A program made the translations under genes and the position numbers. Shown here piece after piece: positions 31,327 to 47,956 of a stretch of 64,000 bases of DNA. Within the stretch, counting starts at the first letter, position 1, and the number at the start of each line of letters is the position of its first letter. The DNA lies in contig JBMNFL010000001.1 in NCBI GenBank assembly GCA_050949315.1, positions 96,001-160,000 on the forward strand. The letters run 5' to 3'. The notes under the pieces are model-generated. The model worked only from the letters and a program-made list of their open reading frames with translations, was not told the origin of the DNA and made no database searches. This stretch comes from Bacilli bacterium. Lineage in GTDB: Bacteria > Bacillota_I > Bacilli_A > RFN20 > UBA1709.

Positions 31327-31409
31327 AAGAAATACCTCAAGCATCACAATAGCATAATTTTTATATATTTGCAAAAAAATCTGCCCTAAAAGACAGATTG
31401 ATTTTAAAG

Positions 31410-31486
31410 TGGTGCGCCCGACACGAATCGAACGTGCGGCCCCAACCTTCGGAGGGTTGTGCTCTAATCCCCTGAGCTACGGGCGC
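31410..31486 (-). tRNA. tRNA-Arg(CCG)
   Basis: Reverse complement GCGCCCG TAGCTCAG...CAACC-CT-CCG-AA-GGTTG...GTTCGATTC...CGGGCGC ACCA. Confidence 0.95.
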
Positions 31487-31556
31487 GCTTTAGTTGCGAT
31501 ATAAGTATAATCCAAATGGGCAGGGAATTAAAGATTTTTTATTTTACAGCGCAGGT

Positions 31557-32846
31557 TTAATCTTTTAAAGAAGTGATAGGAATAATATAAACACCATCAG
31601 TGTTTTTATATGCCATATTTCCAACACCATATATCACGCATTTTATTAGTGGTTCTTTGCCGCCACTATTAACGATGCTTTCACAAATTTTTATCAAGTT
31701 TTCAGCACCTTCTTCGGCCTTATCAAGACCCAGTTTTATTTCAAACGCACACCAATTGCCATCATCTAATTCTAAAACAGCATCAATTTCATTGCCTCGA
31801 TAATCTTGATAATGAAATAGTTTTGCATTCATAGCCTGGGCATATATTGATAGATCTCTTTCCACTAGTGCTTCAAACATGAAACCAAAGGTGTTTAAAT
31901 CACCCATCATTTTTTTAGGCGTTAACTTTAACATTGCACAGGCCATTGCTGGATCAGAAAAATGCCTTTTTTCCATTTGTTTAACTCTTAAGGATGATCT
32001 TATGTTAAGCGAAAATGGTTCTTGATTATTAAACAAAAACATTCTATCAAAGGCGTTCAAATATTTGGTTAAGGTGTTTTTGCTAATTGAATCGGCATCG
32101 TTTTCTATAATATCTCTTAAAATGCTCTGATTAGATGCTGTTGTTGTTTCGTTTCTAGCTAATGATTTGAGAATTAATTTTGCTTTATGTTCGTTATAAT
32201 CTATGTCTTTGTCCAATTTTTTTAGGTCGGTTTTTGCTATATTTTCCATATAACTAATGGCAAGTTCACCACAGTCATCTTCAAGAGCATCAATATTTCC
32301 GGGCCAACCACCGCGAATTATTAAGTATGCTAATCTTTCAAGTTTTGTTTCTTCTAGAAGTTTTGATTCAAATTTGTTTTCACATAAATCCTTTAAAGAT
32401 ATTAGGCCAGTAGAATCACCTGATTCATATAAAGACATCGTGTTCATTCTGATGCTTTTAATTCTTCCTGTACCACTATGCAAAATGCCCTTATCTACAG
32501 GAGTTGATGAGCCAGTTAAAATAATTTGTCCCTTTTCGCCACTTTTATCTACGAAAGACCTTACGGCATCCCATAGTGCTGGCACTTCCTGCCATTCATC
32601 AATTAAGCGTGGCTTGTTGCCTTGGAGTACTGTATAAGGCTCGGTTTCAGCTAACAATCTATTAGAAAAGTTACCCGAGGGATCACCAACAAGAAATTCA
32701 CTATTGGCATGATATGAAGAGGTCCATGTTTTCCCACACCATTTAGGTCCCTCAATGCAAATCGCTCCAAATATTCTTAAGTTTTTCTTAACTAAGGAAT
32801 CAACTATCCTTGATTTGTATTTTGATTTGTTAACCACTTTTTTCAT
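31557..32846 (-). CDS. AAA_14 + DUF4143 ATP-binding protein
   Basis: GPKWCGKT, LIDEWQ, LTGSS, RGGWP, FSDPA, C-terminal EIDAV...AFEIK PD-(D/E)xK-like motif; GAGGTG RBS before ATG 32846. Confidence 0.9.
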   Translation of the reverse strand: MKKVVNKSKYKSRIVDSLVKKNLRIFGAICIEGPKWCGKTWTSSYHANSEFLVGDPSGNFSNRLLAETEPYTVLQGNKPRLIDEWQEVPALWDAVRSFVDKSGEKGQIILTGSSTPVDKGILHSGTGRIKSIRMNTMSLYESGDSTGLISLKDLCENKFESKLLEETKLERLAYLIIRGGWPGNIDALEDDCGELAISYMENIAKTDLKKLDKDIDYNEHKAKLILKSLARNETTTASNQSILRDIIENDADSISKNTLTKYLNAFDRMFLFNNQEPFSLNIRSSLRVKQMEKRHFSDPAMACAMLKLTPKKMMGDLNTFGFMFEALVERDLSIYAQAMNAKLFHYQDYRGNEIDAVLELDDGNWCAFEIKLGLDKAEEGAENLIKICESIVNSGGKEPLIKCVIYGVGNMAYKNTDGVYIIPITSLKD

Positions 32847-32905
32847 AGTATTCACCTCATCGCAAGCTGATAGTAGTATAGCATAAAGATAAACATTAAT
32901 CAACC

Positions 32906-32968
32906 AAACTGACCAACATTTCGGGTTAAAACTGACCAACATTTCAGACTAAAACTGACCAACATTTC
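32906..32968. repeat. Three direct repeats AAACTGACCAACATTTC with 23-bp period
   Basis: Identical 17-mers at 32906, 32929 and 32952; degenerate AAAATCGACCAAT at 32981. Confidence 0.95.
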
Positions 32969-33074
32969 ATAAAACAGGAGAAAATCGACCAATTTGTGAT
33001 AGTAATAAAATGAACAAAAATGTCTTTTTATATTAAAAAGTTCTGACATATTATCAGAATTCTACTTTATTAAG

Positions 33075-33151
33075 TGGCGTCGCCGAGCAGATTCGAACTG
33101 CTGACCTTCCGCTTAGGAGGCGGACGCTCTATCCAGCTGAGCTACGGCGAC
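33075..33151 (-). tRNA. tRNA-Arg(CCT)
   Basis: Reverse complement GTCGCCG TAGCTCAGCTGGATAGAGC..TCCGC-CT-CCT-AA-GCGGA...GTTCGAATC...CGGCGAC GCCA. Confidence 0.95.
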
Positions 33152-33268
33152 ATCCGCTCAAAAATATAGCATGTAATCAGTAAAAAATCAATTGTTTAAA
33201 ATAAGGGGTCTGAGTCTTTATTTTCTTAAAAATTAATGCTACAATGGAATGGATTTGGAGGAAGTGCT

Positions 33269-33730
33269 ATGAAGAAATTATTTAAAGAGTTCAAGGACTT
33301 CATTAATCGTGGAAATGCTTTAGCTTTGGCTATTGGTGTTATCATCGGTGGCGCCTTTTCGTCGGTTGTTGGTGCGATAAATAGCAAAATTATCTCACCA
33401 TTGATCGGCTTACTTATCGGTGATGCTGATCTGAGCAATTCTTTGATTACGGTTTTAAAAACAGATGCTGAGGGCAATGTGACTAACGCCATCTATTGGG
33501 GTGCTTTTTTACAAGCGGTCATTGATTTTATTCTCATCGCTTTAATTCTATTTATTATCAGTAAGATTGTTTTGACAGTGGTTGCTAAGGCTAAAGAAGT
33601 TGTTGATAAGGGGCATGATGAAGAAGTAGTTGTGGCTTCTGAACCAGAACCTGAGCCGGTTAAACCAGCCACGGAAGTTTTACTAGAAGAGATTAGAGAT
33701 TTATTAAAGGAAGAAAAGAACGCAAAATAA
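33269..33730 (+). CDS. mscL: Large-conductance mechanosensitive channel
   Basis: FKEFKDFINRGN...LAIGVIIGGAF, WGAFLQAVIDF, LLEEIRDLL. Confidence 0.96.
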   Translation: MKKLFKEFKDFINRGNALALAIGVIIGGAFSSVVGAINSKIISPLIGLLIGDADLSNSLITVLKTDAEGNVTNAIYWGAFLQAVIDFILIALILFIISKIVLTVVAKAKEVVDKGHDEEVVVASEPEPEPVKPATEVLLEEIRDLLKEEKNAK

Positions 33731-33738
33731 AGAACAAG

Positions 33739-34050
33739 TTATTGCTTGTTCCTTAGGATATAGTTGTAGATATTACGAATGTTTTCCCAGTCTTGTTTGA
33801 AGGTGTCAACCCGTTTGATGCCTTTTTCCTTAATGCGATAGTAATTGCGGATACGACCATTGACTTCAACGTTATAGGTTTCTAATTCCCCAGCAGCTTC
33901 TAGACGTCTAAGAATAGGGTAGAGGGTGGATTCAGAAATTTTAACAATAGGGGAAAGACGAGCGATTATTTTATAGCCATAAGAAGGCGTGCTTCGTAAA
34001 ATGGTCAAAACAAAAATTTCCAGATTATCTTTTTCCAGTTTTGTTAACAC
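33739..34050 (-). CDS. PadR family transcriptional regulator
   Basis: SYGY.I, ESTLYPILRRLE, GR.R.YY.I. Confidence 0.92.
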   Translation of the reverse strand: MLTKLEKDNLEIFVLTILRSTPSYGYKIIARLSPIVKISESTLYPILRRLEAAGELETYNVEVNGRIRNYYRIKEKGIKRVDTFKQDWENIRNIYNYILRNKQ

Positions 34051-34074
34051 AGTTTCGCCCCCTTATTTTTTGAT

Positions 34075-34103
34075 ATTATACAATGCGTAGTATAAGCTTT
34101 CAA
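34075..34103 (-). promoter_or_regulatory. padR promoter with overlapping palindromic operator
   Basis: Minus-strand TTGAAA-17-TATAAT; palindrome TTATAC-N8-GTATAA at 34076-34095. Confidence 0.6.
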
Positions 34104-34168
34104 GCCTTAAAATATAAAAATCTATTTTATTTTAAAAATCTTAGGTATAATAAGACAAGGTGATGTTG

Positions 34169-35293
34169 ATGAAGAAATATATTTTTGCCGATTATAACAA
34201 TTCTTTGGTCAATCTTATCGCTTCAATTGGCAAGAGTTATGGCTTAGAAATGACAGCCACTAGTCTTGAACTTTTAGATAGGGAACTGGCCAAAAATTAT
34301 CGCAGTGTTGTCCTGTTACTGCTCGATGGCATGGGCTCTTTTATCATGGATAAACATCTTAGTAAAGATAGTTTCCTACAAAGGAAAAAAGTAGCCGATT
34401 ATTCATCGGTTTTTCCATCGACAACAGCCGCGGCAACTACCGTTTTAACTTCGGGAAAATCGCCAATTGAAACGGGCTGGCTTGGCTGGCACCAATATTT
34501 TCCTCAGGTGGATCATGATGTCATTTTATTTACCGGACGCGGTTATTATGATGAGCGACTAGAAGAACCAAACCCCGCTTATAAATATTTAAGTTACGAA
34601 ACTTTTGTTCAGCGCTTGAGAAATAAAGGGATAGAAGCGACAACACTTTATCCGAAGTGGTCAAAAGAGAATCCCACGCGTAGTAAAGGTGCTTTTTTTC
34701 GGCAAATTAAACGCTTTGTAAAAAGGGGTCAAAATCGCCAATATCTATATGCCTATTGGGATAACCCTGACCATTTGATGCATGAGTTTGGAACTGATGA
34801 TTTACGTGTTAAAAAAATGCTTAGGGATGTAGATAAACGAATTGAAAGGTTATCTAAAAAACTACCGGCTGATGCCCTGTTAATTGTTACAGCCGATCAT
34901 GGGCATCACGATGTAAAAAGCTTATATTTAAACGAGTATCCTGATTTTTTGAAAACGCTTGTTCGCTTGCCAAGTATTGATTCTCGCAACTCCACTTTTT
35001 TCGTGCGCGAGGATAAAAATAAGGAGTTTGAAGCCTTATTTGAAGAATATTTTGCTTCCTATTTTTTACTGATTAAGAAGGAAGATGTTCTCAAACAAAA
35101 GCTGTTTGGTTTAGGTAGTCCCCATCCCTTAGCTTTAGACTTTATCGGTGATTATCAGGCCGTGGCTATCGATGACTATCAATTCTCTTATAAGAGTGAA
35201 GATGATAAAGCCAACTCTTTTGAAATGAAGGCAGCCCATGCCGGGATTTTAGAAGATGAGATGATTATTCCGCTTATTTTAATTCATCGCTAG
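34169..35293 (+). CDS. Alkaline phosphatase superfamily / nucleotide pyrophosphatase-phosphodiesterase
   Basis: LLLLDGMG, SVFPSTTAAA, D..MHEFG, VTADHG, HAG. Confidence 0.9.
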   Translation: MKKYIFADYNNSLVNLIASIGKSYGLEMTATSLELLDRELAKNYRSVVLLLLDGMGSFIMDKHLSKDSFLQRKKVADYSSVFPSTTAAATTVLTSGKSPIETGWLGWHQYFPQVDHDVILFTGRGYYDERLEEPNPAYKYLSYETFVQRLRNKGIEATTLYPKWSKENPTRSKGAFFRQIKRFVKRGQNRQYLYAYWDNPDHLMHEFGTDDLRVKKMLRDVDKRIERLSKKLPADALLIVTADHGHHDVKSLYLNEYPDFLKTLVRLPSIDSRNSTFFVREDKNKEFEALFEEYFASYFLLIKKEDVLKQKLFGLGSPHPLALDFIGDYQAVAIDDYQFSYKSEDDKANSFEMKAAHAGILEDEMIIPLILIHR

Positions 35294-35367
35294 ATTCAAG
35301 GTGTATTTATTGCTATTTAGTTTTTATTGAACTAGAATTACTCAATATAGAAAGGTGGTAATATCAA

Positions 35368-36792
35368 GTGCCTAAACAATTTTCAACTTATCTACAAGCC
35401 AAGTTACCTTTACTAGAAAAATTGCTGGCCAAACTGGCTGAAAGATATGCCTATTGTTCAATTTTGGGCTGTGATTCGCAGGGGAAGTCTATCGCGGTCC
35501 TTACTAATTCTACTATTATTAATGACAATCCTTTTGCCGAACGCGGTTTTGTTATTCGTGTTCATAACGGTCTCAATTATGCGGAATATTCATTTAACGA
35601 ACTCAGTGAAGAAAATATAGCAACCATCCTTAAGAAAGTTGCAACTGAGTTAGAGTTAAGCGAAGAATATAAACAGTCAAAAGCTATCAAATTAGAAGAA
35701 TACAAACTCTTTGAAGAAGAAAAGATTCGTCAAGATTTCAAGCGGGTTTATCAAGGAGAGAAACCGCCACTTGCTACTGTTGTCAATAGACTAAGCGCAG
35801 TTAAAGATCACTTACAAAAAAGAGAAAATGTCCTCAATGCCACTGTTAATTATCAACAATTAGATATCAGCAAATGTTTTCTTTCCAAAGATAAACACTT
35901 AACCCAGTTTTATAGTTGGGCGGTAGGTGTTGTCGCGGCCTTAGTTAAAAAGGAAGAGGATGTGCGCTATTCTTATGTTTCAAGTTCCGGTGTTGAGCCC
36001 AATCAAGTCTTGAAGGAGTTGGATGATTTAGAAGCTAAGGCCTATCAGGATGCTATGGATTTGCTGGGAAGTTTACCGCCTAAAGCTGGTGTTTATGATA
36101 TTATCGCTTGTCCGGATATCACCGGTTTAATCGCCCATGAGGCCTTTGGTCATGGGGTTGAGATGGATATGTTTGTTAAAGGCCGGGCCAAAGGTCAGGA
36201 GTATCTTAATAAAAGGGTGGCCTCTGATTTAGTGACTATGCATGAGGGGGCCAAGGGCGAACAATTACAAGTATCCTCATATTTCTTTGATGATGAGGGA
36301 AACTTAGCCCAAGACACGATTGAAATCTCTAAAGGTATTCTCAAAACTGGAGTCAGTGATGCTTTATCGGCTTTAATTTTAGGGACGAAACCAACAGGGA
36401 ATGGTAAGCGTCAATCCTTTGAACGCAAGGCCTACGCAAGAATGACGGCCACGTATTTTGAAGCAGGTAAACACAGTTTAGAAGAGATGATTGCCTCAAT
36501 TAAGGAGGGCTTTTTGATCAGTGTTGGTTATAGCGGTATGGAGGATCCCAAAAATTGGGGTATCCAACTGGCGGCCTTGATAGGACGGGAGATCAAAGAT
36601 GGTAAATTAACCGGTAAAGTAGTCTCACCGATTATGATGACTGGTTATGTCCCTGATTTATTGGGTTCTATTTCTATGCTCAGTGACTCGGTTGAACTTT
36701 TTGGGTCGGGAATGTGTGGTAAAGGTTATAAAGAATGGGTCAAAGTCTCCGATGGTGGACCCTATTTGAAAGCGCGGGTGAATATAGGATGA
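35368..36792 (+). CDS. tldD: TldD family metalloprotease
   Basis: HEAFGH (HExxGH), FDDEG, GNGKR, RMT.TY, CGKG...VSDGGP. Confidence 0.9.
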   Translation: MPKQFSTYLQAKLPLLEKLLAKLAERYAYCSILGCDSQGKSIAVLTNSTIINDNPFAERGFVIRVHNGLNYAEYSFNELSEENIATILKKVATELELSEEYKQSKAIKLEEYKLFEEEKIRQDFKRVYQGEKPPLATVVNRLSAVKDHLQKRENVLNATVNYQQLDISKCFLSKDKHLTQFYSWAVGVVAALVKKEEDVRYSYVSSSGVEPNQVLKELDDLEAKAYQDAMDLLGSLPPKAGVYDIIACPDITGLIAHEAFGHGVEMDMFVKGRAKGQEYLNKRVASDLVTMHEGAKGEQLQVSSYFFDDEGNLAQDTIEISKGILKTGVSDALSALILGTKPTGNGKRQSFERKAYARMTATYFEAGKHSLEEMIASIKEGFLISVGYSGMEDPKNWGIQLAALIGREIKDGKLTGKVVSPIMMTGYVPDLLGSISMLSDSVELFGSGMCGKGYKEWVKVSDGGPYLKARVNIG

Positions 36793-38078
36793 TTGAACTT
36801 ATTAAAAAGGTTTTAGCCACTTATCCTCAGGTTGAGTGGACAATCAATGAGGAGAGTGTTTCTTCTTATGAGTTATTTTTTGTTCGGCGTTTACTGCAGA
36901 TGAATAGGGCTAAAGATGTTAAACACTATAGGCTCAGTGTCTATGTTGAACAAGCTGGTTTTAAGGGAACGGCTGATTTTGCAATTCATCCTGGTGCGAA
37001 AGAAGAGGAAGTAAAAAGATTGATCGAGGAAGGTGTCTACGCTGCCTCTTTAGCTAAGAACAAGACTTTTGTCTTGCCTAGCCCAAAAAAGCTTAAACTT
37101 AAGAGCCGAGTGTCAAATATGGATGAGCAAGAACTTTCTGTGTTGGCTTTAAGGATTGCCGAGGCGGTTTTTAAAAATGATACCGAAGAAAAAGGTTTCT
37201 TAAATGCCACAGAGGTCTTTGTCAACCGCAAGTCTTTGCGGGTCTATAATTCTAACGGAATTGATTATAGTAAGACCTCCACTGAGGGACAGGTAGAATA
37301 TATAACAACCTATAGGGGTTCTAAAGAAGAGATTGAACTCTATCGTTTCTTAGAGTTTACCGATTTCTCGGCCGCAAGAATTGCCGCTGATGTCAAAGAA
37401 CAGTTTAGGATTGCTAAATATCGGGCGGAAGCTAAGGAAATGAAGAATTTCACCAATATCAATGTCGTCTTTAATGCCGCGGACATCCGCGAGTTAATGA
37501 ATTACTATTATTGTATGCGTAGCAATGTGCGAAACATCTATAATCATAGTTCTGATTGGCAGGTAGGCGTGGCGGTTCAAGATTTAGACGCCAAAGGCGA
37601 TAAGTTAAATCTTAGCCTTAACCCTGATCAAAAAGGCTCGACTGGAAACTGTCCTTTTGATCGTCTGGGTTCTAGCAATGAAAAGGTGGAGATAATTAAA
37701 GATGGCAAGGTCGCGGCTCTTTGGGGTTCTAGTATTTATGGACAATATCTTGGTTATGAGACCAAGGTTAATACCAATAACGTGGAACTTGGTTTAGGAA
37801 GTTTAAGTGATGAAGACTTAGAAAAAGAGCCTTATTTAGAGTTGTTATCCCTGTCGGGTTTACAGGTTGATGATGTGACAGGTAGTTTTGGTAGTGAAAT
37901 TCGTCTAGCACTCTATCATGAAAAGGGTAAGATCACGCCTTATTATGGCAGTTCAATCAACGGCTTTTTAAAGGAAGTCAGTTCTTCTTGGCAGTTCAGC
38001 CAGCAAAAAGTCCAAATAAACCATTATCATGGTCCGAAAAAACTTCTAATAAAAGGTGTTAATATTTTCGGAAAGTAA
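36789..38078 (+). CDS. TldE/PmbA-like metallopeptidase partner
   Basis: Coupled to tldD, PFD..G motif, no HExxH, similar length. Confidence 0.78.
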   Translation: MIELIKKVLATYPQVEWTINEESVSSYELFFVRRLLQMNRAKDVKHYRLSVYVEQAGFKGTADFAIHPGAKEEEVKRLIEEGVYAASLAKNKTFVLPSPKKLKLKSRVSNMDEQELSVLALRIAEAVFKNDTEEKGFLNATEVFVNRKSLRVYNSNGIDYSKTSTEGQVEYITTYRGSKEEIELYRFLEFTDFSAARIAADVKEQFRIAKYRAEAKEMKNFTNINVVFNAADIRELMNYYYCMRSNVRNIYNHSSDWQVGVAVQDLDAKGDKLNLSLNPDQKGSTGNCPFDRLGSSNEKVEIIKDGKVAALWGSSIYGQYLGYETKVNTNNVELGLGSLSDEDLEKEPYLELLSLSGLQVDDVTGSFGSEIRLALYHEKGKITPYYGSSINGFLKEVSSSWQFSQQKVQINHYHGPKKLLIKGVNIFGK

Positions 38079-38181
38079 GCATAAGAGTTTTCTTGAGGGA
38101 GTGGAGATAATTCTACTCCTTTTTATTTTGATAAAAATGGTTTATTTTATAGAAATTTGTTATACTAAAAAAGGTGATCTT

Positions 38182-38685
38182 ATGCTCAATTTTATTGCGC
38201 AGCGCCGCCACGATGAATGTGGTCTTGCCTGCATGTTAATGATTTTGCAGTATTATGATTGTCCTTTAAATTATTTAGCTCTGCGTTTTTTAAGCCCTAA
38301 GCAGCCATCTTTTTATGACATGCATTATCTCTTTTGTTTATTAGGATTAACATCAAGTTCCTATTTGGTGAAGGATTGTGCTTTAAAAAGAATTGATACT
38401 CTACCGGTAATTCTGCACTTGCGGGGCTTTTTTGCTTGTCATTATGTGGTTTTAGAAAAGATAGAAGGAAAGAAGGCCTTGGTAGCAAATCCTGCTGCTT
38501 TTGGCAAGCGCTTTATGAGTTTAAAGAAATTACAAAGAGTTTGGACGGGTTATTATTTAGTGGTCAAAGGGCCGAAAATAAGTTCAAAAAAGTTGCCAGC
38601 ATCTTTGGCTTATCCCTGGCGTTTTTTGGCTAGCACACTTTTACTTACGGCTTTGTTCTTCTTTTTATTTTGTTGGCTTTTTTAA
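38182..38685 (+). CDS. Stand-alone C39 cysteine peptidase domain protein with C-terminal TM
   Basis: Q.....CGLACM.MIL.YY, LPVILH, HYVVL, ANPA, WTG. Confidence 0.8.
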   Translation: MLNFIAQRRHDECGLACMLMILQYYDCPLNYLALRFLSPKQPSFYDMHYLFCLLGLTSSSYLVKDCALKRIDTLPVILHLRGFFACHYVVLEKIEGKKALVANPAAFGKRFMSLKKLQRVWTGYYLVVKGPKISSKKLPASLAYPWRFLASTLLLTALFFFLFCWLF

Positions 38686-38712
38686 GCAAGAAAAAGGTGT
38701 TATAATTAAACT

Positions 38713-39189
38713 ATGAGAATTAAGATTCATTATCAGAATGAGTTAGAACAAAAACTCGTTGGCTACCAGAAACTTTTTCGGCAAATTTCTCTTGTCGTTT
38801 TTGCCCATGAAAGAATGGGTGGCAGTTATGAATTATCGCTTAGTATTGTGAGCGAAGAAAAGATCAGGGAATTTAATAGGACTTATCGAGCAATTGATGA
38901 GGTTACTGATGTTTTGAGCTTTGCTCAACTAGAGGGGGTAAACTATACCTTACCTAAGGATATGCCCTTACCTTTAGGGGATATTTTAATATGTTATAAT
39001 CAGGCTAAAAAGCAGGCTAGCGCCTATGGCCATAGTATCCGTCGCGAGATGGCTTTCCTTTTCACTCACGGCCTTTTACACCTTTTAGGCTATGATCATA
39101 TGAATGAGAAAGATGAGAAAAAAATGTTTACTCTTCAAGAAAGAATTTTGAATAAGTTGGGTATTAGGAAACAAGAAAGATATGTTTAA
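38713..39189 (+). CDS. ybeY: rRNA maturation RNase YbeY
   Basis: TDVLSF, LGDI.I, HGLLHLLGYDH. Confidence 0.97.
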   Translation: MRIKIHYQNELEQKLVGYQKLFRQISLVVFAHERMGGSYELSLSIVSEEKIREFNRTYRAIDEVTDVLSFAQLEGVNYTLPKDMPLPLGDILICYNQAKKQASAYGHSIRREMAFLFTHGLLHLLGYDHMNEKDEKKMFTLQERILNKLGIRKQERYV

Positions 39190-39313
39190 AAAAACTAAAA
39201 TCCTTATTTAAAAAACGCAAAAATACTTATCTTTTATTACATGCGTGGCTACTGCAAACTAAAATATAATAAAAGATATTGAGATTTGTTTAGCCCAATT
39301 TGTTTTGTGTTTA

Positions 39314-39349
39314 TACAGTGACATTTACAGTGACATTTACAGTGACATA
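39314..39349 (+). repeat. Three tandem 12-bp repeats TACAGTGACATT overlapping the -35 of the promoter GTGACA-17-TATAAT
   Basis: Units at 39314, 39326 and 39338; -35 GTGACA 39330-39335, -10 TATAAT 39353-39358. Confidence 0.93.
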
Positions 39350-39383
39350 TTGTATAATAACAATTAGAAAAGGAGTGGTTTAT

Positions 39384-40724
39384 ATGAACTTAGGAATCGA
39401 GAATGAAACACTAGAATTCAAAAAATCCACAAGTGAATTAAAAGCTGCTATGAATGATATATGTGCAATGTTAAATAAGCACGGTTATGGCACATTATAT
39501 TTTGGTGTAAAACCTAATGGTCAAGTTTGCGGTCAAGAGATAAGCGCAAGTTCGCTCAATGATGTTGCTAGATGTATTAAATCAGCAATTAAACCCATGA
39601 TATATCCTCAAATTGATAGGGTTAATTTAGGTGGATTAGATGTGATAAAAGTAGAAGTCAAAGGAAATGAAAGACCTTATTCGTCCTATGGAAAATACTT
39701 CAAAAGAGTTCATGATAGGGCAGAAGATATTACTCCAGACGAATTAAAACATATGATGTTAAATAATGACTTTACTTCAATATGGGAAAATAATCTAACT
39801 CCATATGGATTAGATGATGTTGATTCAAATGCCCTTGAAAGTTTTTATAATAAATCAGTTGATTGTGGCAGATTGGAGCCATTAGAGAAATATAATGAAG
39901 AAGAATTGCTTGCAATTTTAGGCTTGTATAAAGATGGCAAACTAAATAATGCGGGTTATTTTTTATTCTCATCAAAAGAACCGGTTGTTTTAAAAATGGC
40001 TGTTTATGTTACTGATGCTAGACTCAATTTTTCGGATATAAATAGAGTTCATGGTAATATCTACAATTTAATTGATGTTGCAACTAAATATGTTATTAAC
40101 CATATGAATTGGAGAGTAGAATTTGATAGCAAAAGCACATCTAGAATTGAAATTCCAGAAGTACCAATTGTGGCGATAAGAGAAGCTGTGGTTAATGCTT
40201 TTGCTCATGCCAATTATCGTTCATTTACTGAACATGAAATTACCATTACACCAACTTTAATTGAAATATACAATCCCGGAGAATTTCCAGTGAATTACAA
40301 GCCAGAAGATTTCGCAACTAAAAGGATAGGTTCAATGCCCAGAAACAAAAAAATATTGGATGTATTATACAAGTCAAAGAATGTTGAAGTTCAAGGAAGT
40401 GGGTTGCGAAAAATATTCAATGAATGTAAAGAAAACGATACAAAATATGAATATGTCTTAAATGATTATGGATTTAGATTTGTATTCCATAGAAAAAATG
40501 TCACTGTAAACGTCACTCAAGATGTCACTGTAAAACTAATTAGAACCGACTATGAAGTTTTGAATTTATTGAAACAAAATCCTGAAAGCACGCGGGATGT
40601 AATGGCGCGGAAAATTGGCAAAACCGTTAGAACAATTCAAAGGTCATTAAACAGATTAACAAAAGCCGGGAAAATTGTTAGAATAGGTGGTGACAAGACT
40701 GGCTATTGGGAGATAATAGTCTAG
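39384..40724 (+). CDS. AlbA_2 (Schlafen-like) + HATPase_c_4 + C-terminal HTH protein
   Basis: ENETLEFKKS, ICAMLN..GTLYFGV, REAVVNAFAH.NY, I.NPG, PRN..I...L, GSG, C-terminal HTH ending G.WEI; AGGAG RBS; visibly AT-rich. Confidence 0.88.
   Translation: MNLGIENETLEFKKSTSELKAAMNDICAMLNKHGYGTLYFGVKPNGQVCGQEISASSLNDVARCIKSAIKPMIYPQIDRVNLGGLDVIKVEVKGNERPYSSYGKYFKRVHDRAEDITPDELKHMMLNNDFTSIWENNLTPYGLDDVDSNALESFYNKSVDCGRLEPLEKYNEEELLAILGLYKDGKLNNAGYFLFSSKEPVVLKMAVYVTDARLNFSDINRVHGNIYNLIDVATKYVINHMNWRVEFDSKSTSRIEIPEVPIVAIREAVVNAFAHANYRSFTEHEITITPTLIEIYNPGEFPVNYKPEDFATKRIGSMPRNKKILDVLYKSKNVEVQGSGLRKIFNECKENDTKYEYVLNDYGFRFVFHRKNVTVNVTQDVTVKLIRTDYEVLNLLKQNPESTRDVMARKIGKTVRTIQRSLNRLTKAGKIVRIGGDKTGYWEIIV
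40497..40532 (-). repeat. Three intragenic 12-bp repeats (AATGTCACTGTA, AACGTCACTCAA, GATGTCACTGTA), inverted copies of the promoter array
   Basis: Reverse complement of TACAGTGACATT is AATGTCACTGTA; 0, 3 and 1 mismatches; encodes NVTV-NVTQ-DVTV. Confidence 0.9.
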
Positions 40725-40780
40725 AAGGGAGAAAGTTATTCAGTAATCAAGGTGGACTCCACTGAATAATAGATAAAAAA

Positions 40781-41188
40781 ATGATAAAACACTTAGATGA
40801 ATTAGTTAGGCAGGCTAAGCTTGCTCAAGCCAAGGCTTATGCGCCTTATTCAAAATTTAAAGTAGGGGCAGCTCTTATGTTAAGTGACCATAATTATATC
40901 CAAGGAGTTAATTGTGAAAATGCCTCTTATGGTTTAACTTGCTGTGCGGAGCGAGTGGCAATTTATAATGCCATCACCCAGGGTTATAGCAAGAAAGATA
41001 TTTTGGCTTTGGCTATCGTTAGTGATTCTACTGGCGATACTAGTCCTTGTGGGGCTTGCCGGCAGGTGATGTTTGAACTCTTAGATCCTAAAACCCCAGT
41101 TTATTGTGTCAATGCTAAGAATGAAGTTAAAGAATATCAGGTTGAGGATTTCTTGCCCCAGCCTTTTAATGCCGAGGGTTTGAAATAA
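40781..41188 (+). CDS. cdd: Cytidine deaminase
   Basis: AYAPYSKFKVGAA, ENASYGLTCCAER, SPCGACRQ. Confidence 0.97.
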   Translation: MIKHLDELVRQAKLAQAKAYAPYSKFKVGAALMLSDHNYIQGVNCENASYGLTCCAERVAIYNAITQGYSKKDILALAIVSDSTGDTSPCGACRQVMFELLDPKTPVYCVNAKNEVKEYQVEDFLPQPFNAEGLK

Positions 41189-41189
41189 A

Positions 41190-42074
41190 ATGGCTTTTAA
41201 ATCCGGCTTTGTCGCCTTGATTGGTCGACCAAATGTTGGCAAATCAACTTTGCTGAACAGTTTACTTGGTCAAAAAGTTGCGATTGTGTCGCCTAAAGCG
41301 CAAACGACGAGGAATGTTATTCGGGGCGTTTATAGTAATAGTGAGCTACAGATTGTTTTTCTAGATACCCCAGGACTGCACCAAGCGAGCAATGTTTTAG
41401 GCAAATACATGAATCAAAAAGCCAAGGCTTCTTGTTATGAAGTAGAGGCCATTTTACTAGTTGCTGATGCCAGCAAGGATCACGCTGAGGATTATGAGAC
41501 CTTAATCAGGGACATCAAAGATTTTAATTGTCCGCTTTTTTTAGTCTTAAATAAAATTGATTTAATAAGTAAAAATCAACTTTTAACTCTCACCGCTTCT
41601 TTTGCCGAAAAGTTTACTTTTGCCGGCATCATTCCCGTTTCAGCCCGCAAAAAAGATAATTTAGAACAGATATTAGTGGCTCTTAAGGAAGTTTTGCCAG
41701 AGGGTCCAAAGTATTATCCTGAGTCCACACTCAGTGATAATCCTGAAAGTTTTATTGTAAGTGAGATTATTCGGGAGAAGATTCTTTCTTTTACCCGTGA
41801 GGAAATACCGCATTCGGTAGCGGTTATCGTTGAGAAGATGACAACTACTAGTAAGGCTTTGAATATTTTTGCGACCATTATTGTTGAGCGCGAATCGCAA
41901 AAAGGGATTTTAATTGGTAAAAACGGTCAAATGCTCCGTAAAATTGGCACCAGTGCTCGCCAAGAATTAAGTAGGATTTTAGCAACGCCCATTCATTTAG
42001 AAACCTTTGTTAGAGTAGAGAAGGATTGGCGTAATTCTCTTCGTTATCTCAAAGAATTTGGTTATAGAGATTAG
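41190..42074 (+). CDS. era: GTPase Era
   Basis: GRPNVGKST, QTTR, DTPG, NKID, KH domain ERESQKGILIG. Confidence 0.98.
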   Translation: MAFKSGFVALIGRPNVGKSTLLNSLLGQKVAIVSPKAQTTRNVIRGVYSNSELQIVFLDTPGLHQASNVLGKYMNQKAKASCYEVEAILLVADASKDHAEDYETLIRDIKDFNCPLFLVLNKIDLISKNQLLTLTASFAEKFTFAGIIPVSARKKDNLEQILVALKEVLPEGPKYYPESTLSDNPESFIVSEIIREKILSFTREEIPHSVAVIVEKMTTTSKALNIFATIIVERESQKGILIGKNGQMLRKIGTSARQELSRILATPIHLETFVRVEKDWRNSLRYLKEFGYRD

Positions 42075-42076
42075 TT

Positions 42077-42799
42077 ATGGAAGAGATAGTTAAGGGTTAT
42101 ATTTTAAGAGCAGTTCCTTACCGCGAGAATCATTTGATTGTCGATCTTTTGACAGCGGATGGCTTAGTGAGTTTTAAGGCCCGGGGGGCTTTAAAAAGCC
42201 CTAGCAAGAGTCTTTCAGCAGTTCAACTCTATAACTATGGAGAGTATCAGTTATATGCGCCACGAGAAGGAGCGAATAAAACTTTGGTAGCGGCTGAGGT
42301 TAAGGAGCGTTTACCTAGCCTTTTCAGCGATCTACAAGTCCATGTCTTACTAGCCTTACTGACAGAGACGATTTATAAGAATAAAGAGAGTGAAAACTGG
42401 TATGATGTTTTTACTTTTTTCTTTCAAAAACTTAAGGAAAAGCGGAATTTAAATGCGGTTTTTCTCGTTCTTTTAAAATACAATACCATCTATGCGGGCA
42501 GTTATCTTGGTGCCGATGGCTGTTTAGTTTGTGGGACCAGCAAAGATATCGTCAGTGTTTCTTTCCAAGATGGTGGTTTTTTGTGTGCCACTTGTTGTGA
42601 AAAACTTCGGCGTTATCGCCAAGATGCCTTATATTTACAAAATTTTCGCTATGTCGTGAAGGCCAATTATCAACAAGCCTTTACTTTTAAAGTCCCTTCA
42701 GCTGTGGCTAAGTCTTTAGCAAGTGATTTTTTTAAGCACTTAGAGAATAATTGTGGTCTTACTTTTAAATGCCGCGAATTAGTTGAAGATTGCCTATAA
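42077..42799 (+). CDS. recO: DNA repair protein RecO
   Basis: N-terminal OB fold (YRE, ARGA), Zn motif C..CG...GGFLC..C; follows era. Confidence 0.9.
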   Translation: MEEIVKGYILRAVPYRENHLIVDLLTADGLVSFKARGALKSPSKSLSAVQLYNYGEYQLYAPREGANKTLVAAEVKERLPSLFSDLQVHVLLALLTETIYKNKESENWYDVFTFFFQKLKEKRNLNAVFLVLLKYNTIYAGSYLGADGCLVCGTSKDIVSVSFQDGGFLCATCCEKLRRYRQDALYLQNFRYVVKANYQQAFTFKVPSAVAKSLASDFFKHLENNCGLTFKCRELVEDCL

Positions 42800-42874
42800 T
42801 ACACTTATAGTAGGTTGACAACCTCGCGCGCCCATCCGTATGATGGGGGATGTGCAAATGAGGTGCTTTTTATT

Positions 42875-44242
42875 ATGGAAAAAAATTTTGACAAGATTGT
42901 CAACCATGTGACAAATTCTGGTTTTCTTTATCAGGGTTCGGCCATTTATGGCGGCCTTGCTAATTCTTGGGACTATGGGCCCTTAGGTACGCATTTAAAG
43001 ATGAATATCAAAAAGCTCTGGTGGCAGAAGTTTGTTCAGGAGCAGGAACTGAATGTGGGTCTTGACAGTGCCATTTTGATGAATCCCAAGGTTTGGGAGG
43101 CTAGTGGTCATCTGGCGAATTTTGCCGATCCTTTGATGGACTGTAAAAACTGTAAAGCCCGTTTTCGGGCCGATAAATTAATTGAGGAACATGATCCAAC
43201 TATTGTCTCTGATGGTTGGTCAAATGAAAAACTTTTTGATTATATTCAAAGTCATGATATCAAATGTCCAAAGTGTGGTTCTAAAAACTTCACCGATATT
43301 CGGAAATTCCAATTGATGTTTAAAACGCATCAAGGGGTGGTTGAAGATTCTAAAAGTGAGGTTTATCTGCGTCCAGAAACCGCCCAGGGCATCTTTGTTA
43401 ATTTTAAAAATATCTTAAGGACAACACGCAAAAAAATACCCTTTGGTGTTTGCCAAATCGGTAAGGCCTTTCGTAACGAAATCACGCCAGGTAACTTTAT
43501 CTTCCGTACGCGGGAATTTGAGCAGATGGAATTAGAGTTCTTCTGTGCTCCGGGCACGGATTTAGACTGGTATCGCTACTGGAAAGATTATTGTTGGTCA
43601 TTCCTAAATTCACTGGGAATTTCCAATGAAAAATTAAGAATTCGCGAACATAGTAAAGAAGAACTGGCCCACTATTCTAAGGGAACCAGTGATATTGAAT
43701 ATCTTTTCCCCTTTGGTTGGGGTGAGGTCTGGGGTATTTCGGATCGCGGTGATTACGATTTGAGCCAGCACAGCAAGTTTTCAGGTGAAAAATTAGATTA
43801 CTTGTCCAGTGAAACTAATGAGCGTTTTGTTCCCTACGTTGTTGAACCCTCTTTAGGGGTTGATCGCTTATTATTAACCCTTTTAGTTGATGCTTATGAG
43901 GAAGAAGAATTAGAAAAAGATATGCGGATAGTGATGCGTTTCCATCCCTTGGTCGCCCCAGTTCAAGTGGCGGTTTTCCCACTTTCTAGGCAACTGAGTG
44001 AAGGCGCCAAAGAGGTTTTTAACGCCTTAACCAAACTCTATCACTGTGAATATGATGAAAGTGGTAGCATAGGCAAGCGTTATCGCCGTCAAGATGCTAT
44101 TGGAACACCCTTTTGTGTTACTTATGATTTTGAGAGTAAAGAAGATGAGGCGGTTACTGTAAGAGAAAGAGATTCGATGAAACAGGAGCGCGTTGCCATT
44201 AAAGATTTAAAAACCTATTTAGGTGAACGTTTAGTATTTTAA
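42875..44242 (+). CDS. glyQS: Glycine--tRNA ligase (alpha2, eukaryotic-type)
   Basis: YLRPETAQGIF, FRNEITPGNFIFRTREFEQME, IGKRYRRQDAIGTP. Confidence 0.97.
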   Translation: MEKNFDKIVNHVTNSGFLYQGSAIYGGLANSWDYGPLGTHLKMNIKKLWWQKFVQEQELNVGLDSAILMNPKVWEASGHLANFADPLMDCKNCKARFRADKLIEEHDPTIVSDGWSNEKLFDYIQSHDIKCPKCGSKNFTDIRKFQLMFKTHQGVVEDSKSEVYLRPETAQGIFVNFKNILRTTRKKIPFGVCQIGKAFRNEITPGNFIFRTREFEQMELEFFCAPGTDLDWYRYWKDYCWSFLNSLGISNEKLRIREHSKEELAHYSKGTSDIEYLFPFGWGEVWGISDRGDYDLSQHSKFSGEKLDYLSSETNERFVPYVVEPSLGVDRLLLTLLVDAYEEEELEKDMRIVMRFHPLVAPVQVAVFPLSRQLSEGAKEVFNALTKLYHCEYDESGSIGKRYRRQDAIGTPFCVTYDFESKEDEAVTVRERDSMKQERVAIKDLKTYLGERLVF

Positions 44243-44256
44243 GAAGGAGTGAATTG

Positions 44257-46050
44257 ATGGGCAAGGTTGATTTTGATCAAATTAGACGGCAGGTAAACAT
44301 CGTCCAAATTATCAATAATTATGTGCCTTTAGCTCGGCATGGAAGTGGCTATGTTGGGCTTTGCCCCTTTCATAATGATAAAAATCCCTCGCTTCAGGTT
44401 TCTCAAGAAAAACAAATTTATAAATGCTTCTCCTGTGGAGCAGCGGGGAATGTCTTTACTTTTGTCCAGAATTACGAAAAGATTCCCTTTATCAATGCCG
44501 TTAAGAAAGTTTGTGATATCGCCGGTCTTAAGGTTGAAGGTTTGGAAGAGAAAGAAGAAGGGCCTAGTTTTAGTCGCTTAGAAACTAAACTTATGCAACT
44601 GCTTCAAGATTTGACCATTTATTATAACTACCAGTTGAAGGTCGATATTGGAAGCGAGGCCCTAAGTTATCTTCACTCTCGCGGTTTAACTGATAAAGAA
44701 ATTGAGGATTTTAAAATTGGTTTTGCGCCCTCTGATGGCCATCTTACGGTTAAGTTTTTGCAGAGCAAAGCTTACAGCCTTGATGAGATTATCAGTGCTG
44801 GTGTTGGGGTGGAGATTAGTCCAGGTGAAGTGGTTGATCGCTTAAGAGGACGTCTTATTTTCCCACTAACAGATACTTATGGTCGCCCTATTGCTTACAG
44901 TGGTCGCCGCTTAAAGAAAGAAGATAGCGAGCAGAAATATATCAATACACCTGAAACTTTACTGTTTCATAAGAGCGATGTCCTTTATAACTATCAGCAA
45001 GCCCTTAATCATGCTCGTCAGGAAGAAGCGGTCTATGTGGTTGAGGGGTTTATGGATGCTATCACTCTAACAAGGGTGGGTTTAAAGGCCGTGGTGGCCA
45101 CGATGGGCACGGCTTTAACTAATGAACACTTGCGATTGTTGCAGTCCTTAAGAAGCGAGATTCGTCTTTTCTTTGATGCTGATAAAGCGGGAGCAACGGC
45201 TACTTATCGCACATTAGAGGCTCTGAGTCGTACGCGCTTGAAGGTAAGGGTTGTTAAACCTTTAGTGGGAGTTAAAGATATTGATGAACTCTATCAAACT
45301 AAAGGTGCGGCTGCCGTTACTAAGGCTGCTAAAGAGACGATGGGTGCCATTGATTTTGTCCTTTACTATTTAGAAGGACAGCATAACTTAGAAAATCATG
45401 AGGATTGCAAGCGATACCTTAATAAAGCGAGCACTTATCTAGCCGGTTCCCAGATTGATGATCTGGATCGTGAACATTATATTAATTTACTGAGTCAGAA
45501 GACCAAGTTTAGTAAAACTTTGATTCAACGTTTAGTTAAGGGGGTCCTTTCCAAAGCGGATAGTAAGATGGAGAAGGTCTTAACTAGCAATAGAATTAAA
45601 AGTCAAAGGCAGAGCAAGAATCTCAATCGTTTTGAACAGGCCGATCATCAGATTATTCAATTACTACTAACTGATGGTTGGAATATTGTAAAGTTTGATA
45701 GTCTTGGCATTTCTTTGTATTCTAAGATGTGTCGCGATTTAGCCTCATTGATTGTCCAAAAATATTGTGAGTCAAAAGGTGATAAAAAGGTGGAACTAGC
45801 GGATCTTTATAGCGCGATGCCCCAAGAGATGATCACCTTAGTAAACCAAATTATGAGTGAATCTTATCCCCCCTCAAGCTTAGATGAATTAGCTAAAGTG
45901 GTGGTGGATGATTTGGCCTCTAAACGCCATGAAAAGAGTTTAGAACAGCAGATTTTAGAAGTTGATGATTTAAAAAAGCAGACGGAATTAGCCGAAGAAC
46001 TAATTAATAAACGTCGGCTTAAAAGTAGAAGAATTAATAAGGAGGATTAA
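44257..46050 (+). CDS. dnaG: DNA primase
   Basis: CPFH..K.PS, CFSCG, KYINTPET, VEGFMD, FDADKAG. Confidence 0.98.
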   Translation: MGKVDFDQIRRQVNIVQIINNYVPLARHGSGYVGLCPFHNDKNPSLQVSQEKQIYKCFSCGAAGNVFTFVQNYEKIPFINAVKKVCDIAGLKVEGLEEKEEGPSFSRLETKLMQLLQDLTIYYNYQLKVDIGSEALSYLHSRGLTDKEIEDFKIGFAPSDGHLTVKFLQSKAYSLDEIISAGVGVEISPGEVVDRLRGRLIFPLTDTYGRPIAYSGRRLKKEDSEQKYINTPETLLFHKSDVLYNYQQALNHARQEEAVYVVEGFMDAITLTRVGLKAVVATMGTALTNEHLRLLQSLRSEIRLFFDADKAGATATYRTLEALSRTRLKVRVVKPLVGVKDIDELYQTKGAAAVTKAAKETMGAIDFVLYYLEGQHNLENHEDCKRYLNKASTYLAGSQIDDLDREHYINLLSQKTKFSKTLIQRLVKGVLSKADSKMEKVLTSNRIKSQRQSKNLNRFEQADHQIIQLLLTDGWNIVKFDSLGISLYSKMCRDLASLIVQKYCESKGDKKVELADLYSAMPQEMITLVNQIMSESYPPSSLDELAKVVVDDLASKRHEKSLEQQILEVDDLKKQTELAEELINKRRLKSRRINKED

Positions 46051-46056
46051 AAGAAT

Positions 46057-47289
46057 ATGGCAGAGTTAACAAAACGTGATTATGATGATGAGGTTGAGAG
46101 TTTAGAAGAGATTATTAAGCGCTTTGATAAACTGGCCAAACTCAAGGGGAATGAGATTATTTTAAGTGACTTAAACGAGGCGGTCGCCCAGTTTGATTTG
46201 ACTGACGAGGAAAATGATGAGCTTTTAAAACACTTCACCGATCAAGGTATAACCATCGTGAACGATGATTTAGATGAAGAGACATCCTTGGATGATATTG
46301 ATGCTGATTTAGCCAATCTAGATGATATCCCTGAAGCCGATGTTGATGATGATCTTGACGACCAAGCCCTTGAAGATAAGGAGCGTCTTTCCTATATTGA
46401 GGAGGTCTTAATTGATCCGGTTTCCTCTTCCTTGCAAACCGATGTTAAGATCAATGATCCTGTTAAGATGTATTTGAAAGAAATTGGTCGTGTTCCTTTA
46501 CTTGACAAGGAAAGTGAGGTCGCCTTAGCTGAAAGAGTGGCGCAGGGCGATGAAGAGGCCAAAAATATTTTGATTTCCTCCAACCTGCGTTTAGTGGTTT
46601 CCATTGCTAAACATTATATTGGTCGCGGAATGTTGTTTTTGGACTTAATCCAAGAAGGAAATCTTGGTCTAATCAAAGCCAGTGAGAAGTTTGATCCATC
46701 TAAGGGTTTTAAGTTTTCAACTTATGCGACTTGGTGGATTCGTCAAGCGATAACTAGAGCGATTGCTGATCAGGCAAGAACCATTCGGATTCCCGTTCAC
46801 ATGGTTGAAACAATTAACAAGATGACTAAGGTTCAACGGGCTTTGGTTCAAGAATTAGGTCGGGATCCAACTGCGGAAGAAATCGCTGAAAAAATGGGCT
46901 CAGGCACTACACCTGAGCGGGTGCGGGAGATTCAAAGAATTGCTTTAGAACCTGTCTCTTTAGAAACCCCAATTGGTGAAGAAGATGATTCGCATCTAGG
47001 TGATTTTATTGAAGATAAGGATGCGATTTCCCCAGCCGAATATGCAACTAATGAATTATTAAAAGATGAACTCTATAAGGTCATGGGCGATTTAACCGAT
47101 CGGGAAGAACGAGTCTTACGTTTACGCTATGGTCTAGACGATGGTAGACCTCGGACTTTAGAAGAGGTTGGCAAAGAATTTGGTGTTACTAGAGAAAGAA
47201 TTCGGCAGATTGAAGCCAAGGCTTTGCGCAAGTTACGTCATCCCTTACGGAAACCGCGTTTAAGTGATTATTATCGGGGGAGTCGTTAA
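46057..47289 (+). CDS. rpoD: RNA polymerase sigma factor RpoD/SigA
   Basis: [51 protein letters not shown]. Confidence 0.99.
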
Positions 47290-47954: not shown

Positions 47955-47956
47955 AA

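Follow-up and report, generated by a model that had tools for sequence, protein, structure and literature searches.

The gene considered here lies in a window of 64,000 nucleotides (nt), the whole stretch of DNA that was analysed (positions 96,001 to 160,000 of contig JBMNFL010000001.1, assembly GCA_050949315.1, from a Bacilli bacterium of the lineage UBA1709). It encodes a protein of 446 amino acids (aa) in which a Schlafen-type nuclease domain and an ATPase domain are followed by a repetitive linker and a C-terminal helix-turn-helix (HTH) domain. An array of three 12-nt units overlaps the predicted promoter, and an inverted array of three such units encodes the linker; both may well be operators for the HTH of the gene's own product. 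The elements of the locus, including the coding sequence (CDS), are the following.

39190..40780, plus strand: whole unit (promoter array, gene and 3' flank), an insertion between ybeY (38713-39189) and cdd (40781-41188)
39314..39349, plus strand: promoter array of three direct 12-nt units, TACAGTGACATT (39314-39325), TACAGTGACATT (39326-39337) and TACAGTGACATA (39338-39349); proposed operator
39330..39358, plus strand: predicted sigma-70-like promoter, with -35 box GTGACA (39330-39335) within unit 2 and -10 box TATAAT (39353-39358)
39370..39375, plus strand: ribosome-binding site AAGGAG, read from the sequence, 8 nt 5' of the ATG at 39384
39384..40724, plus strand: CDS of 446 aa, comprising SLFN_AlbA_2, HATPase_c_4, linker and HTH_24
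39399-39725, plus strand: SLFN_AlbA_2 domain (PF04326), aa 6-114, Pfam E value 9.6e-21
39399..39422, plus strand: ENETLEFK, aa 6-13, which fits the Schlafen nuclease motif E(x)4(D/E)xK
40236-40445, plus strand: HATPase_c_4 domain (PF13749), GHKL-type, aa 285-354, Pfam E value 4.9e-11
40497..40532, minus strand: linker array with the minus-strand units TACAGTGACATT, TTGAGTGACGTT and TACAGTGACATC; proposed auxiliary operator
40542-40676, plus strand: HTH_24 domain (PF13412), a winged HTH, aa 387-431, Pfam E value 4.7e-08

The initial annotation had described both arrays, and re-reading the coordinates confirms the description: three 12-nt promoter units supply the -35 box, and the internal units 40497-40508, 40509-40520 and 40521-40532 are reverse complements of TACAGTGACATT with 0, 3 and 1 mismatches, respectively. 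On the plus strand the latter read in frame as NVTV NVTQ DVTV (NVTVNVTQDVTV), aa 372-383, directly before the HTH. A repeat finder delimits arms of 46 nt (39311-39356 and 40490-40535) that are 83% complementary and 1133 nt apart. The promoter is predicted from its match to the consensus alone; its 17-nt spacer contains unit 3, and with 11/12 consensus matches it is the top site in 38600-41300. A weaker promoter-like site with 9/12 matches is located upstream of the array (39236-39265). The list of open reading frames (ORFs) places the start of the gene at TTG 39300; we took ATG 39384 instead, because AAGGAG precedes it by 8 nt and because all 32 aligned homologues share M1 and N2. In the same alignment (A1), E6, E11 and K13 of the nuclease motif are invariant.

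The match between promoter and linker in the window gene is far above chance. Aligned without gaps, the 160 nt upstream and the reverse complement of the CDS gave a top score of 23, compared with a mean of 9.7 (sd 1.1) and a maximum of 13 for codon-shuffled versions of the CDS (n=300). The number of 12-mer matches in the window is unremarkable when taken alone (8 with up to 2 mismatches against 4.5 expected, reached by 10 of 100 shuffles), and 5 of these 8 fall in this locus. The pattern GTGACA-N6-GTGACA, with up to one mismatch allowed, occurs at 5 places in the genome, a single contig of 1.01 Mb, 4 of them in the locus and 1, carrying a mismatch, elsewhere; the reversed-pattern control gave 3 places.

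Outside the window, the same genome carries a paralogue of the gene with 45% identity (G000:C1:71020-72348; locus L010, 1495-2856, minus strand). It is flanked by a glutamate-dehydrogenase-like gene and gmk, and its upstream neighbour is divergent. Its upstream array consists of three copies of AAATGTCCACCC, of TGGACA type, and the reverse complement of this array is found within its CDS (31 nt, 97%), where it encodes NVHPNVQPNV at the equivalent position of the protein; the arms are again separated by 1133 nt. Genome-wide, paired units that are exact and spaced at 12 nt are confined to each copy's own promoter and own linker, and the other paired-unit places, all of them mismatched, are similar in number to those of the reversed-pattern control. 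As each paralogue has its own unit, each would therefore form a private circuit, without cross-talk.

We then surveyed the family. A large protein collection holds 1267 relatives at E values up to 0.001, many of them with xNVTxNVT-like linkers. Loci came from one genome per species (the best 80 of 141 relatives) and from 399 scored genomes of the same class; 109 of these genomes had a match, in many cases in more than one paralogue, and they contributed 30 loci, of which L091-L119 were new. Genes with a near full-length match and at least 120 nt of upstream sequence were kept, giving 75 + 28 genes, 100 of them distinct and 36-84% identical; partial matches at contig ends were excluded, as was L039, which had too little upstream DNA. 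To score a gene, its 160 nt of upstream sequence were compared without gaps with its whole CDS on either strand; the best match was taken, with a threshold of 12. This tests the proposal that linker repeats in homologues should match the repeats upstream of their own genes: 47 of the 100 genes have an upstream-to-CDS match, and in 44 of these 47 the CDS partner is located in the linker zone (55-100 aa from the C-terminus, ~10% of the gene). The match is retained across clades that are just 36-45% identical. Matched arrays are also present in L157, from a Mycoplasmopsis arginini record (69% identical), where the gene sits between hsdS and hsdR.

At least ten classes of unit can be told apart in these genes, and the linker follows the promoter from class to class.

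GTGACA: linker NVT (window gene, L012)
GTGCCA: linker GTINGTIN (L013, L199)
GGGACA / GAGACA: linker NVPVNVS (L053)
TGGACA: linker NVQ / NVH (whole clade at 41-46%)
ACGACA: linker NVVN (L095, L096)
GTATCA: linker DTLN (L112)
AGAGTGACA: linker dependent on orientation (L098, L099, L101)
TATCGATAAATG: linker NVSI/NEPI (L109)
ATGATACAATAA: linker NDTT (L110)
ATGATAGAATAA: linker NDRT/NDRI (L114)
ATGATAAGATAA: linker NDKI (L116, L119)

Where a core is present in at least two copies on both sides, promoter and linker are concordant in 25 of 27 genes, with no cross between GTGACA and TGGACA. What is kept in these linkers can be read from L101, in which AATAGAGTGACA is direct and AAT AGA GTG ACA gives NRVT, and from its relatives L098 and L099, in which the unit is inverted and gives DVTL. 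The peptide changes with orientation and frame while the DNA unit is kept, and it is therefore the DNA, not the peptide, that is conserved. Codon usage agrees with this. In the 45 of 75 genes whose linker contains [NDH]V two or more times, GTC encodes the valine of this pair in 99/110 cases, but the valines outside the linker in 146/1100 (90% vs 13%, Fisher p 1e-63); in the same genes, linker Asn is AAT in 80/87 cases (858/1201 elsewhere) and linker Thr is ACT in 36/48 (343/1024 elsewhere). Furthermore, the consensus that flanks the core is equal in coding and non-coding arrays (TTAnA-GTGACA-TTT and TTATn-TGGACA-TTT). The earlier claim that the linker DNA is selected at the nucleotide level and matched to the promoter is thus strongly supported by the paralogue, by the position of 44 of the 47 matches and by the codon bias. 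We conclude that the two arrays co-vary, independently of orientation and frame, under nucleotide-level constraint. The linker peptide (NVTx, NVQx, NGTx, NVVx, NDKI, NRVT and others) would then be largely a by-product of the DNA site.

The same data bear on the possibility that the internal repeat is a passenger with no function at the DNA level, i.e. that the linker arose at the protein level or by slippage and that the promoter copy (or, in reverse, the linker copy) is kept alike by occasional gene conversion. It would account for the 12-nt linkers (x-x-[VIL]-N-like) that are general in distant Schlafen-ATPase-HTH and Fic-HTH genes with no upstream match, and for the loss of the match in some close relatives that have kept the gene. 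It sits badly with linkers whose peptide is wholly altered while the DNA unit is kept (NRVT and DVTL from the same unit, NDKI, NVVN, GTIN), with the preference for GTC inside the linker, and with a match that persists over such distant clades and so many unit classes. Further to that, close orthologues of the window gene have persistent linker variants (TTGAG..., TTCAG...) while their upstream units remain TACAG.... Such linker-specific variants speak against frequent conversion and suggest that the likeness is maintained on the core rather than made by continuous gene conversion. We regard a passenger repeat as unlikely.

The orientation of the arrays is informative in a different way. Of the 44 linker matches, 30 are inverted and 14 direct. 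Clear direct arrays are present in L101, L109, L110, L114, L116 and L119; L028, L032 and L100 have a single inverted unit over the -10 box, and L052, L069 and L107 resemble chance AT-rich matches. This matters for the idea, raised in the initial annotation, that the arrays are inversion sites for phase variation. In its broader form this idea makes the arrays a recombination substrate: inversion between inverted arrays, or deletion between direct ones, would uncouple the Schlafen-ATPase part from the HTH, and slippage would produce phase or copy-number variation or an exchange of the N-terminal cassette. In the window the inverted arrays flank the -10 box, the ribosome-binding site and aa 1-371, and inversion would re-form the -35 box from the other array; as read from the sequence, the frame would then run AAT GTC ACT GTA TAA to a stop. 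Unit numbers shift fast in close relatives (3, 4, 5, 7 and at least 10 upstream, 3-8 in the linker). The HTH is often much less conserved than the N-terminal part (e.g. 40% vs 79%). In the relic L120 (3200-3475, G105:C12), TATAAT runs straight into a linker-type array (ATGTCACTGTA...) followed by an HTH; this relic, located by a tRNA gene, has an HTH that is 67% identical and lacks both the N-terminal part and a start codon, and it looks like a deletion between direct units. Finally, P0134 carries an exactly duplicated module of GGQK-repeat linker plus HTH, which suggests that the linker-plus-HTH module may duplicate as a unit. Between 8 and 9 tandem copies of this HTH type are found in P0124, P0125, P0126 and P0134.

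As a conserved function, however, recombination is disfavoured. Inverted or split states were absent among the matches to the 80 loci and among the listed matches of the 399 genomes, where the four partial matches inspected are contig ends or relics. The suggested check for inversion of 39314-40532 gave no strand-changing joint in the contigs of 4 runs, a weak negative as contigs drop rare variants. No recombinase gene was found within ~8 kb, where a Pfam scan of the ORFs in 30679-49321 returned housekeeping genes only. In many cases the arrays have diverged too far for homologous exchange (83% alike in the window), and the placement of the units on the -35 box is left unexplained. Inverted repeats do flank the segment in the window, yet 14 of the 44 matched genes have direct ones, so that the hallmark of an invertible switch is not conserved. 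Since orientation differs among relatives, with at least six direct-orientation homologues, no single rearrangement is conserved either. In fimS and the hsdS shufflons, inverted repeats flank a segment that carries parts of a promoter or of genes; unlike in those systems, no recombinase or second orientation was found here, and array orientation is not conserved in the family. We therefore give the recombination substrate little credence as the reason for the arrays. Recombination at the units nonetheless seems to occur now and then, as in L120, P0134 and the changes in unit number, and with unit numbers varying as they do, a tuning of promoter and linker through copy number, one of the earlier suggestions, appears plausible.

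The contigs of runs X9, X14 and X16 break at the promoter array (39314-39348), and separate contigs carry the same 35-nt array elsewhere, one of them fitting the upstream flank of L191, an orthologue with 84% identity. The presence of the same array in other contigs therefore indicates that related organisms sharing the unit co-occur in these metagenome samples.

Orientation bears equally on control by RNA pairing, in which a transcript reading through from ybeY, or starting at the weak upstream promoter, would pair its 5' array with the linker array and so control translation or decay. The window gene and 30 of the 44 matched genes have complementary arrays, ybeY is co-directional, and the promoter-like site at 39236-39265 is suitably upstream. 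At the same time, the -10 box of the strong promoter is downstream of the array, and in relatives too the array abuts the -10 box; the upstream neighbour of the paralogue is divergent; the genomic contexts of homologues vary widely; and at least six genes have arrays in direct orientation that are unable to pair. Together, the position of the -10 box, the divergent neighbour and the direct arrays turn us away from the ybeY read-through duplex that had been proposed, and we consider RNA pairing highly improbable. In ToxIN-like type III toxin-antitoxin systems, a repeat array upstream of the toxin gene is transcribed as the antitoxin RNA. Such a system was considered for the window gene and rejected, given that the -10 box of the best promoter is downstream of the array and that the units are 12 nt long.

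No DNA-binding domain other than the HTH of the gene itself accompanies the arrays. In 38 of the 66 genes with at least two cores, a core is located 16-18 nt upstream of a -10-like hexamer, and in many relatives an inverted unit lies over the -10 box, giving the promoter the look of a classical operator. The recognition helix differs between unit classes: (V)RTIQRSL for GTGACA, EKTVQR.ISSL for TGGACA, SRS[VI]QRI for ACGACA, TI[YS]RH for GATAAGATA and R[FS]T[YF][QK] for T[TC]TTGCAT. Pairs of relatives illustrate how unit and HTH can change together. L023 and L014 are 79% identical in the N-terminal 360 aa and 40% in the HTH, and the unit of L023 has switched from GTGACA to ACGACA; L022 and the window gene share 72% N-terminal and 35% HTH identity, and the units of L022 are (G/A)TGCCA.

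Two other readers of the units were tried and rejected. The sigma subunit of RNA polymerase, as a reader of -35-like cores, does not fit units that co-vary, nor the GATAAGATA and TATCGATA classes, which are not -35-like. An antisense promoter issuing from the linker array finds no convincing -10 box at the right spacing and is contradicted by the direct-orientation cases.

We suggest that both arrays are operators for the HTH encoded by the same gene, in a circuit of private autorepression with an auxiliary intragenic operator; we think this reasonably likely. Among the four hypotheses of the initial annotation, the binding of both arrays by the HTH appears best-supported, and it is from sequence comparisons that we infer binding, repression and looping. 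The 12-nt units would be iteron-like recognition sites for the winged HTH. Protein sitting on the promoter array would mask the -35 box and the spacer, and in this way it would switch off its own promoter. The linker array, ~1.15 kb downstream, would be an auxiliary operator that strengthens or sharpens repression, and it could do so in two ways. It may be bridged to the promoter array in a loop through the expected oligomerisation of the Schlafen-ATPase part, with several HTHs per particle, or it may block elongating RNA polymerase ahead of the HTH-coding part. In this manner, private autorepression would hold down the amount of a Schlafen-type nuclease/ATPase that probably restricts growth.

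A number of observations weigh against autorepression through both arrays. No upstream-to-CDS match of score 12 or more was found in 53 of the 100 genes, and upstream repeats only are present in 23 of 74. Of nine close relatives (74-84% identical), 5 keep the match (L195-L199), and the match is hence non-essential: L191, the 84% orthologue, has seven promoter units and a decayed linker array, and in L192-L194 the promoter keeps at least 10 GTGACA units while the linker has diverged to TTTAGCAACATC (DVAK x6-8). Further out, a matched second array is absent in 19 of 20 sampled chromosomal homologues at 24-29% identity, L190 alone having one, and all three distant plasmid-borne homologues examined (Parabacteroides, Arcobacter and Runella) have perfect 12-nt linker repeats with no second copy in the whole plasmid record. 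The initial annotation had extended its expectation to Fic-HTH genes, and here it fails: despite 12-nt periodic linkers, comparison with the 300 nt upstream gave a match for 0 of 10 Fic-HTH loci. Periodic linkers with no second array indicate that the linker repeat may have an older cause (an x-x-[VIL]-N peptide, or slippage), in which case the promoter match may be a clade-specific addition. The expected co-variation of unit and recognition residues also stands only in part. The upstream array is strictly periodic in 39 of the 100 genes (with a period of 12 in 32, 11 in 6 and 10 in 1). Among these, unit similarity is associated with helix identity when N-terminal identity is fixed (partial r 0.24, reached by 3 of 1000 permutations), and with N-terminal identity when helix identity is fixed, the partial r is 0.13 (95 of 1000 permutations). 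A cruder measure of upstream similarity shows no preference for the helix (partial r 0.15 vs 0.19 for the N-terminal part), and since all such tests are confounded by descent, the association lends only modest support.

Two more comparisons gave indistinct results. When linkers were ranked against upstream regions, the gene's own upstream region came first for 9 of 74 linkers and among the top five for 19, which is not sharp; the ranking is blunt because the AGTGACAT core is common to many loci and the own array is outscored by perfect arrays of greater length elsewhere. Upstream and linker copy numbers were not significantly correlated (rho 0.25, p 0.11, 44 genes). In the orthologue lineage with 82% identity (L011 / L192 / L194) both arrays are expanded, with at least 10 promoter and 6-8 linker units, and L193 has yet another unit count.

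From this distribution, the 12-nt periodic linker appears to be a general trait of this HTH module, and the mirrored promoter array a feature, it seems, of a clade of stand-alone genes with their own promoter. Linkers of Fic-HTH proteins with a related HTH read NDPV, NLPV, NVPV and FGVK. A word-based search with linker plus HTH returned 10 matches, all from the same family, and an exhaustive search with the HTH only gave 2592, stand-alone and multi-HTH proteins among them. In three loci, L157, L159 (Arcobacter plasmid) and L156 (Shewanella baltica plasmid), homologues and a Fic-HTH gene are part of type I restriction-modification loci, just before hsdR. The gene is 3' of hsdS in L157 and L156 and 3' of a DUF87 gene in L159, and a tyrosine recombinase gene is found near L157.

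As to the role of the protein, its domain set and its E(x)4(D/E)xK motif, in the wording found in parts of a preprint (10.64898/2026.05.29.728809), are those of a Schlafen-ATPase with a C-terminal winged HTH. Passages of the same preprint (Kuzmenko et al. 2026) name such proteins 'Schlatpases' and describe them as mostly small, with no other domain or with a short C-terminal HTH. In the Argonaute fusion characterised there, again according to passages of that text, the protein tetramerises through its GHKL domain in an ATP-dependent manner and cleaves tRNA with its Schlafen domain during abortive infection (10.64898/2026.05.29.728809). The domain set is common to both, but the protein studied in those passages is an Argonaute fusion and the window gene is stand-alone; the strings 'tandem repeat', 'autoregul' and 'operator' have 0 occurrences in the text of 10.64898/2026.05.29.728809. 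A two-domain relative, Photorhabdus TrlG (AlbA_2 + HATPase_c_4), is reported in passages of a further source to permit growth at 36 C when its gene is lost (10.1101/2020.06.02.129163), which suggests a growth-limiting activity. TrlG shares the two N-terminal domains; unlike the window gene, it belongs to a three-gene operon with a separate putative regulator of 79 aa, and the passages of that source do not describe repeats (10.1101/2020.06.02.129163).

By analogy with these relatives, the window protein is probably a toxic nuclease and would be expected to oligomerise. If the protein is harmful, as its relatives suggest (tRNA cleavage, growth restriction), tight private autorepression would have a sensible purpose, and the ATP-driven tetramerisation of a relative makes the bridging of two arrays by an oligomer plausible. 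PADLOC assigned no defence family to the protein, with partial matches only, to pAgo-associated PNTD regions and CARF/CasR-type HTHs; its NCBIfam matches were all under their cut-offs, and a sequence search of the PDB returned 3lmm alone, titled 'uncharacterized protein'. In an RNA run, the gene is represented by one contig of 186 nt (40094-40279).

Operators within coding sequences are known from lac O2 in lacZ and gal OI in galE, auxiliary sites that act with DNA looping. The proposed arrangement is similar in that a second repressor site within the downstream coding sequence would cooperate with a promoter-proximal one. Unlike in lac and gal, the second site of the window gene is in the regulator's own gene and is a tandem array of the same period and similar copy number; it fills the interdomain linker, dictates amino acids and co-varies across at least ten unit classes. 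Plasmid Rep proteins are winged-helix proteins that have iterons and an inverted-repeat operator at the rep promoter, where they repress their own synthesis. The window gene shares with them the winged-helix protein, direct repeats and the overlap of repeats with its own promoter; it differs in having units of 12 nt rather than ~19-22 nt, no replication context and one array that is intragenic. Ori-lambda is located in the linker-coding part of gene O. Passages of PMC3017604 describe the binding of lambda O to four iterons at ori-lambda. RepC and lambda O thus likewise have a binding-site array within the coding sequence of the binder, but those arrays are replication origins, whereas the window gene is a chromosomal single-gene insertion that shows no sign of an origin, has no replication genes attached and carries a second array on its promoter. 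Our literature searches, with supplements and most subscription journals outside their scope, found no description of the arrangement. What is new is an auxiliary array in the regulator's own interdomain linker that mirrors the period and number of the promoter array, and a linker array that dictates the peptide and co-varies over many specificity classes and paralogues.

With regard to the surroundings of the gene, related genomes (19 of 19) have ybeY, cdd and era in direct succession, and the gene is thus a ~1.6-kb single-gene insertion; no transposase or integrase is attached to it (39190-40780). Directly past the stop codon there is an inverted repeat, TTATTCAGT ... ACTGAATAA (40736-40769, 16-nt loop), with no T run, which may be the end of the inserted unit or a terminator. 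Directly 5' of ybeY, a Peptidase_C39 ORF (209 aa, E value 1.6e-20, 38056-38685) overlaps the end of a TldD/PmbA-like gene and has no ABC-transporter part in the same ORF. An ATPase gene with AAA_14 and DUF4143 domains is situated amid housekeeping genes on the minus strand (31557-32942).

A more speculative extension, which we put forward as a long shot, is that the arrays are the only cognate 'parking sites' that the genome offers to a latent tRNA nuclease of the Schlafen type: through its HTHs, an ATP-assembled oligomer of the enzyme would bridge both arrays of its own gene, leaving the enzyme inactive and its synthesis silenced. If this were true, stripping the protein from DNA or destroying the locus would release the nuclease and de-repress it at once, and the trigger could be, for example, a phage that induces DNA degradation, a competitor for binding or transcription running across the site. 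The gene's own DNA would then act as the antitoxin, and the operator-coding linker together with the HTH would make a portable specificity cassette.

To our knowledge, Schlafen-ATPase-HTH proteins are the commonest form of prokaryotic Schlafen, and their biology is almost unstudied. If both arrays are indeed operators for the HTH, these proteins would acquire a testable regulatory logic, with one private operator pair per paralogue, and they would provide a clear natural case of a regulatory DNA site setting the sequence of a protein segment (NVTx, NRVT and DVTL from one unit). For annotation, the warning is that 'low-complexity' tetrapeptide linkers can be DNA elements. The unit classes, at least ten in number, would constitute a natural set of HTH-operator pairs in which to study how DNA-binding specificity diverges among paralogues.

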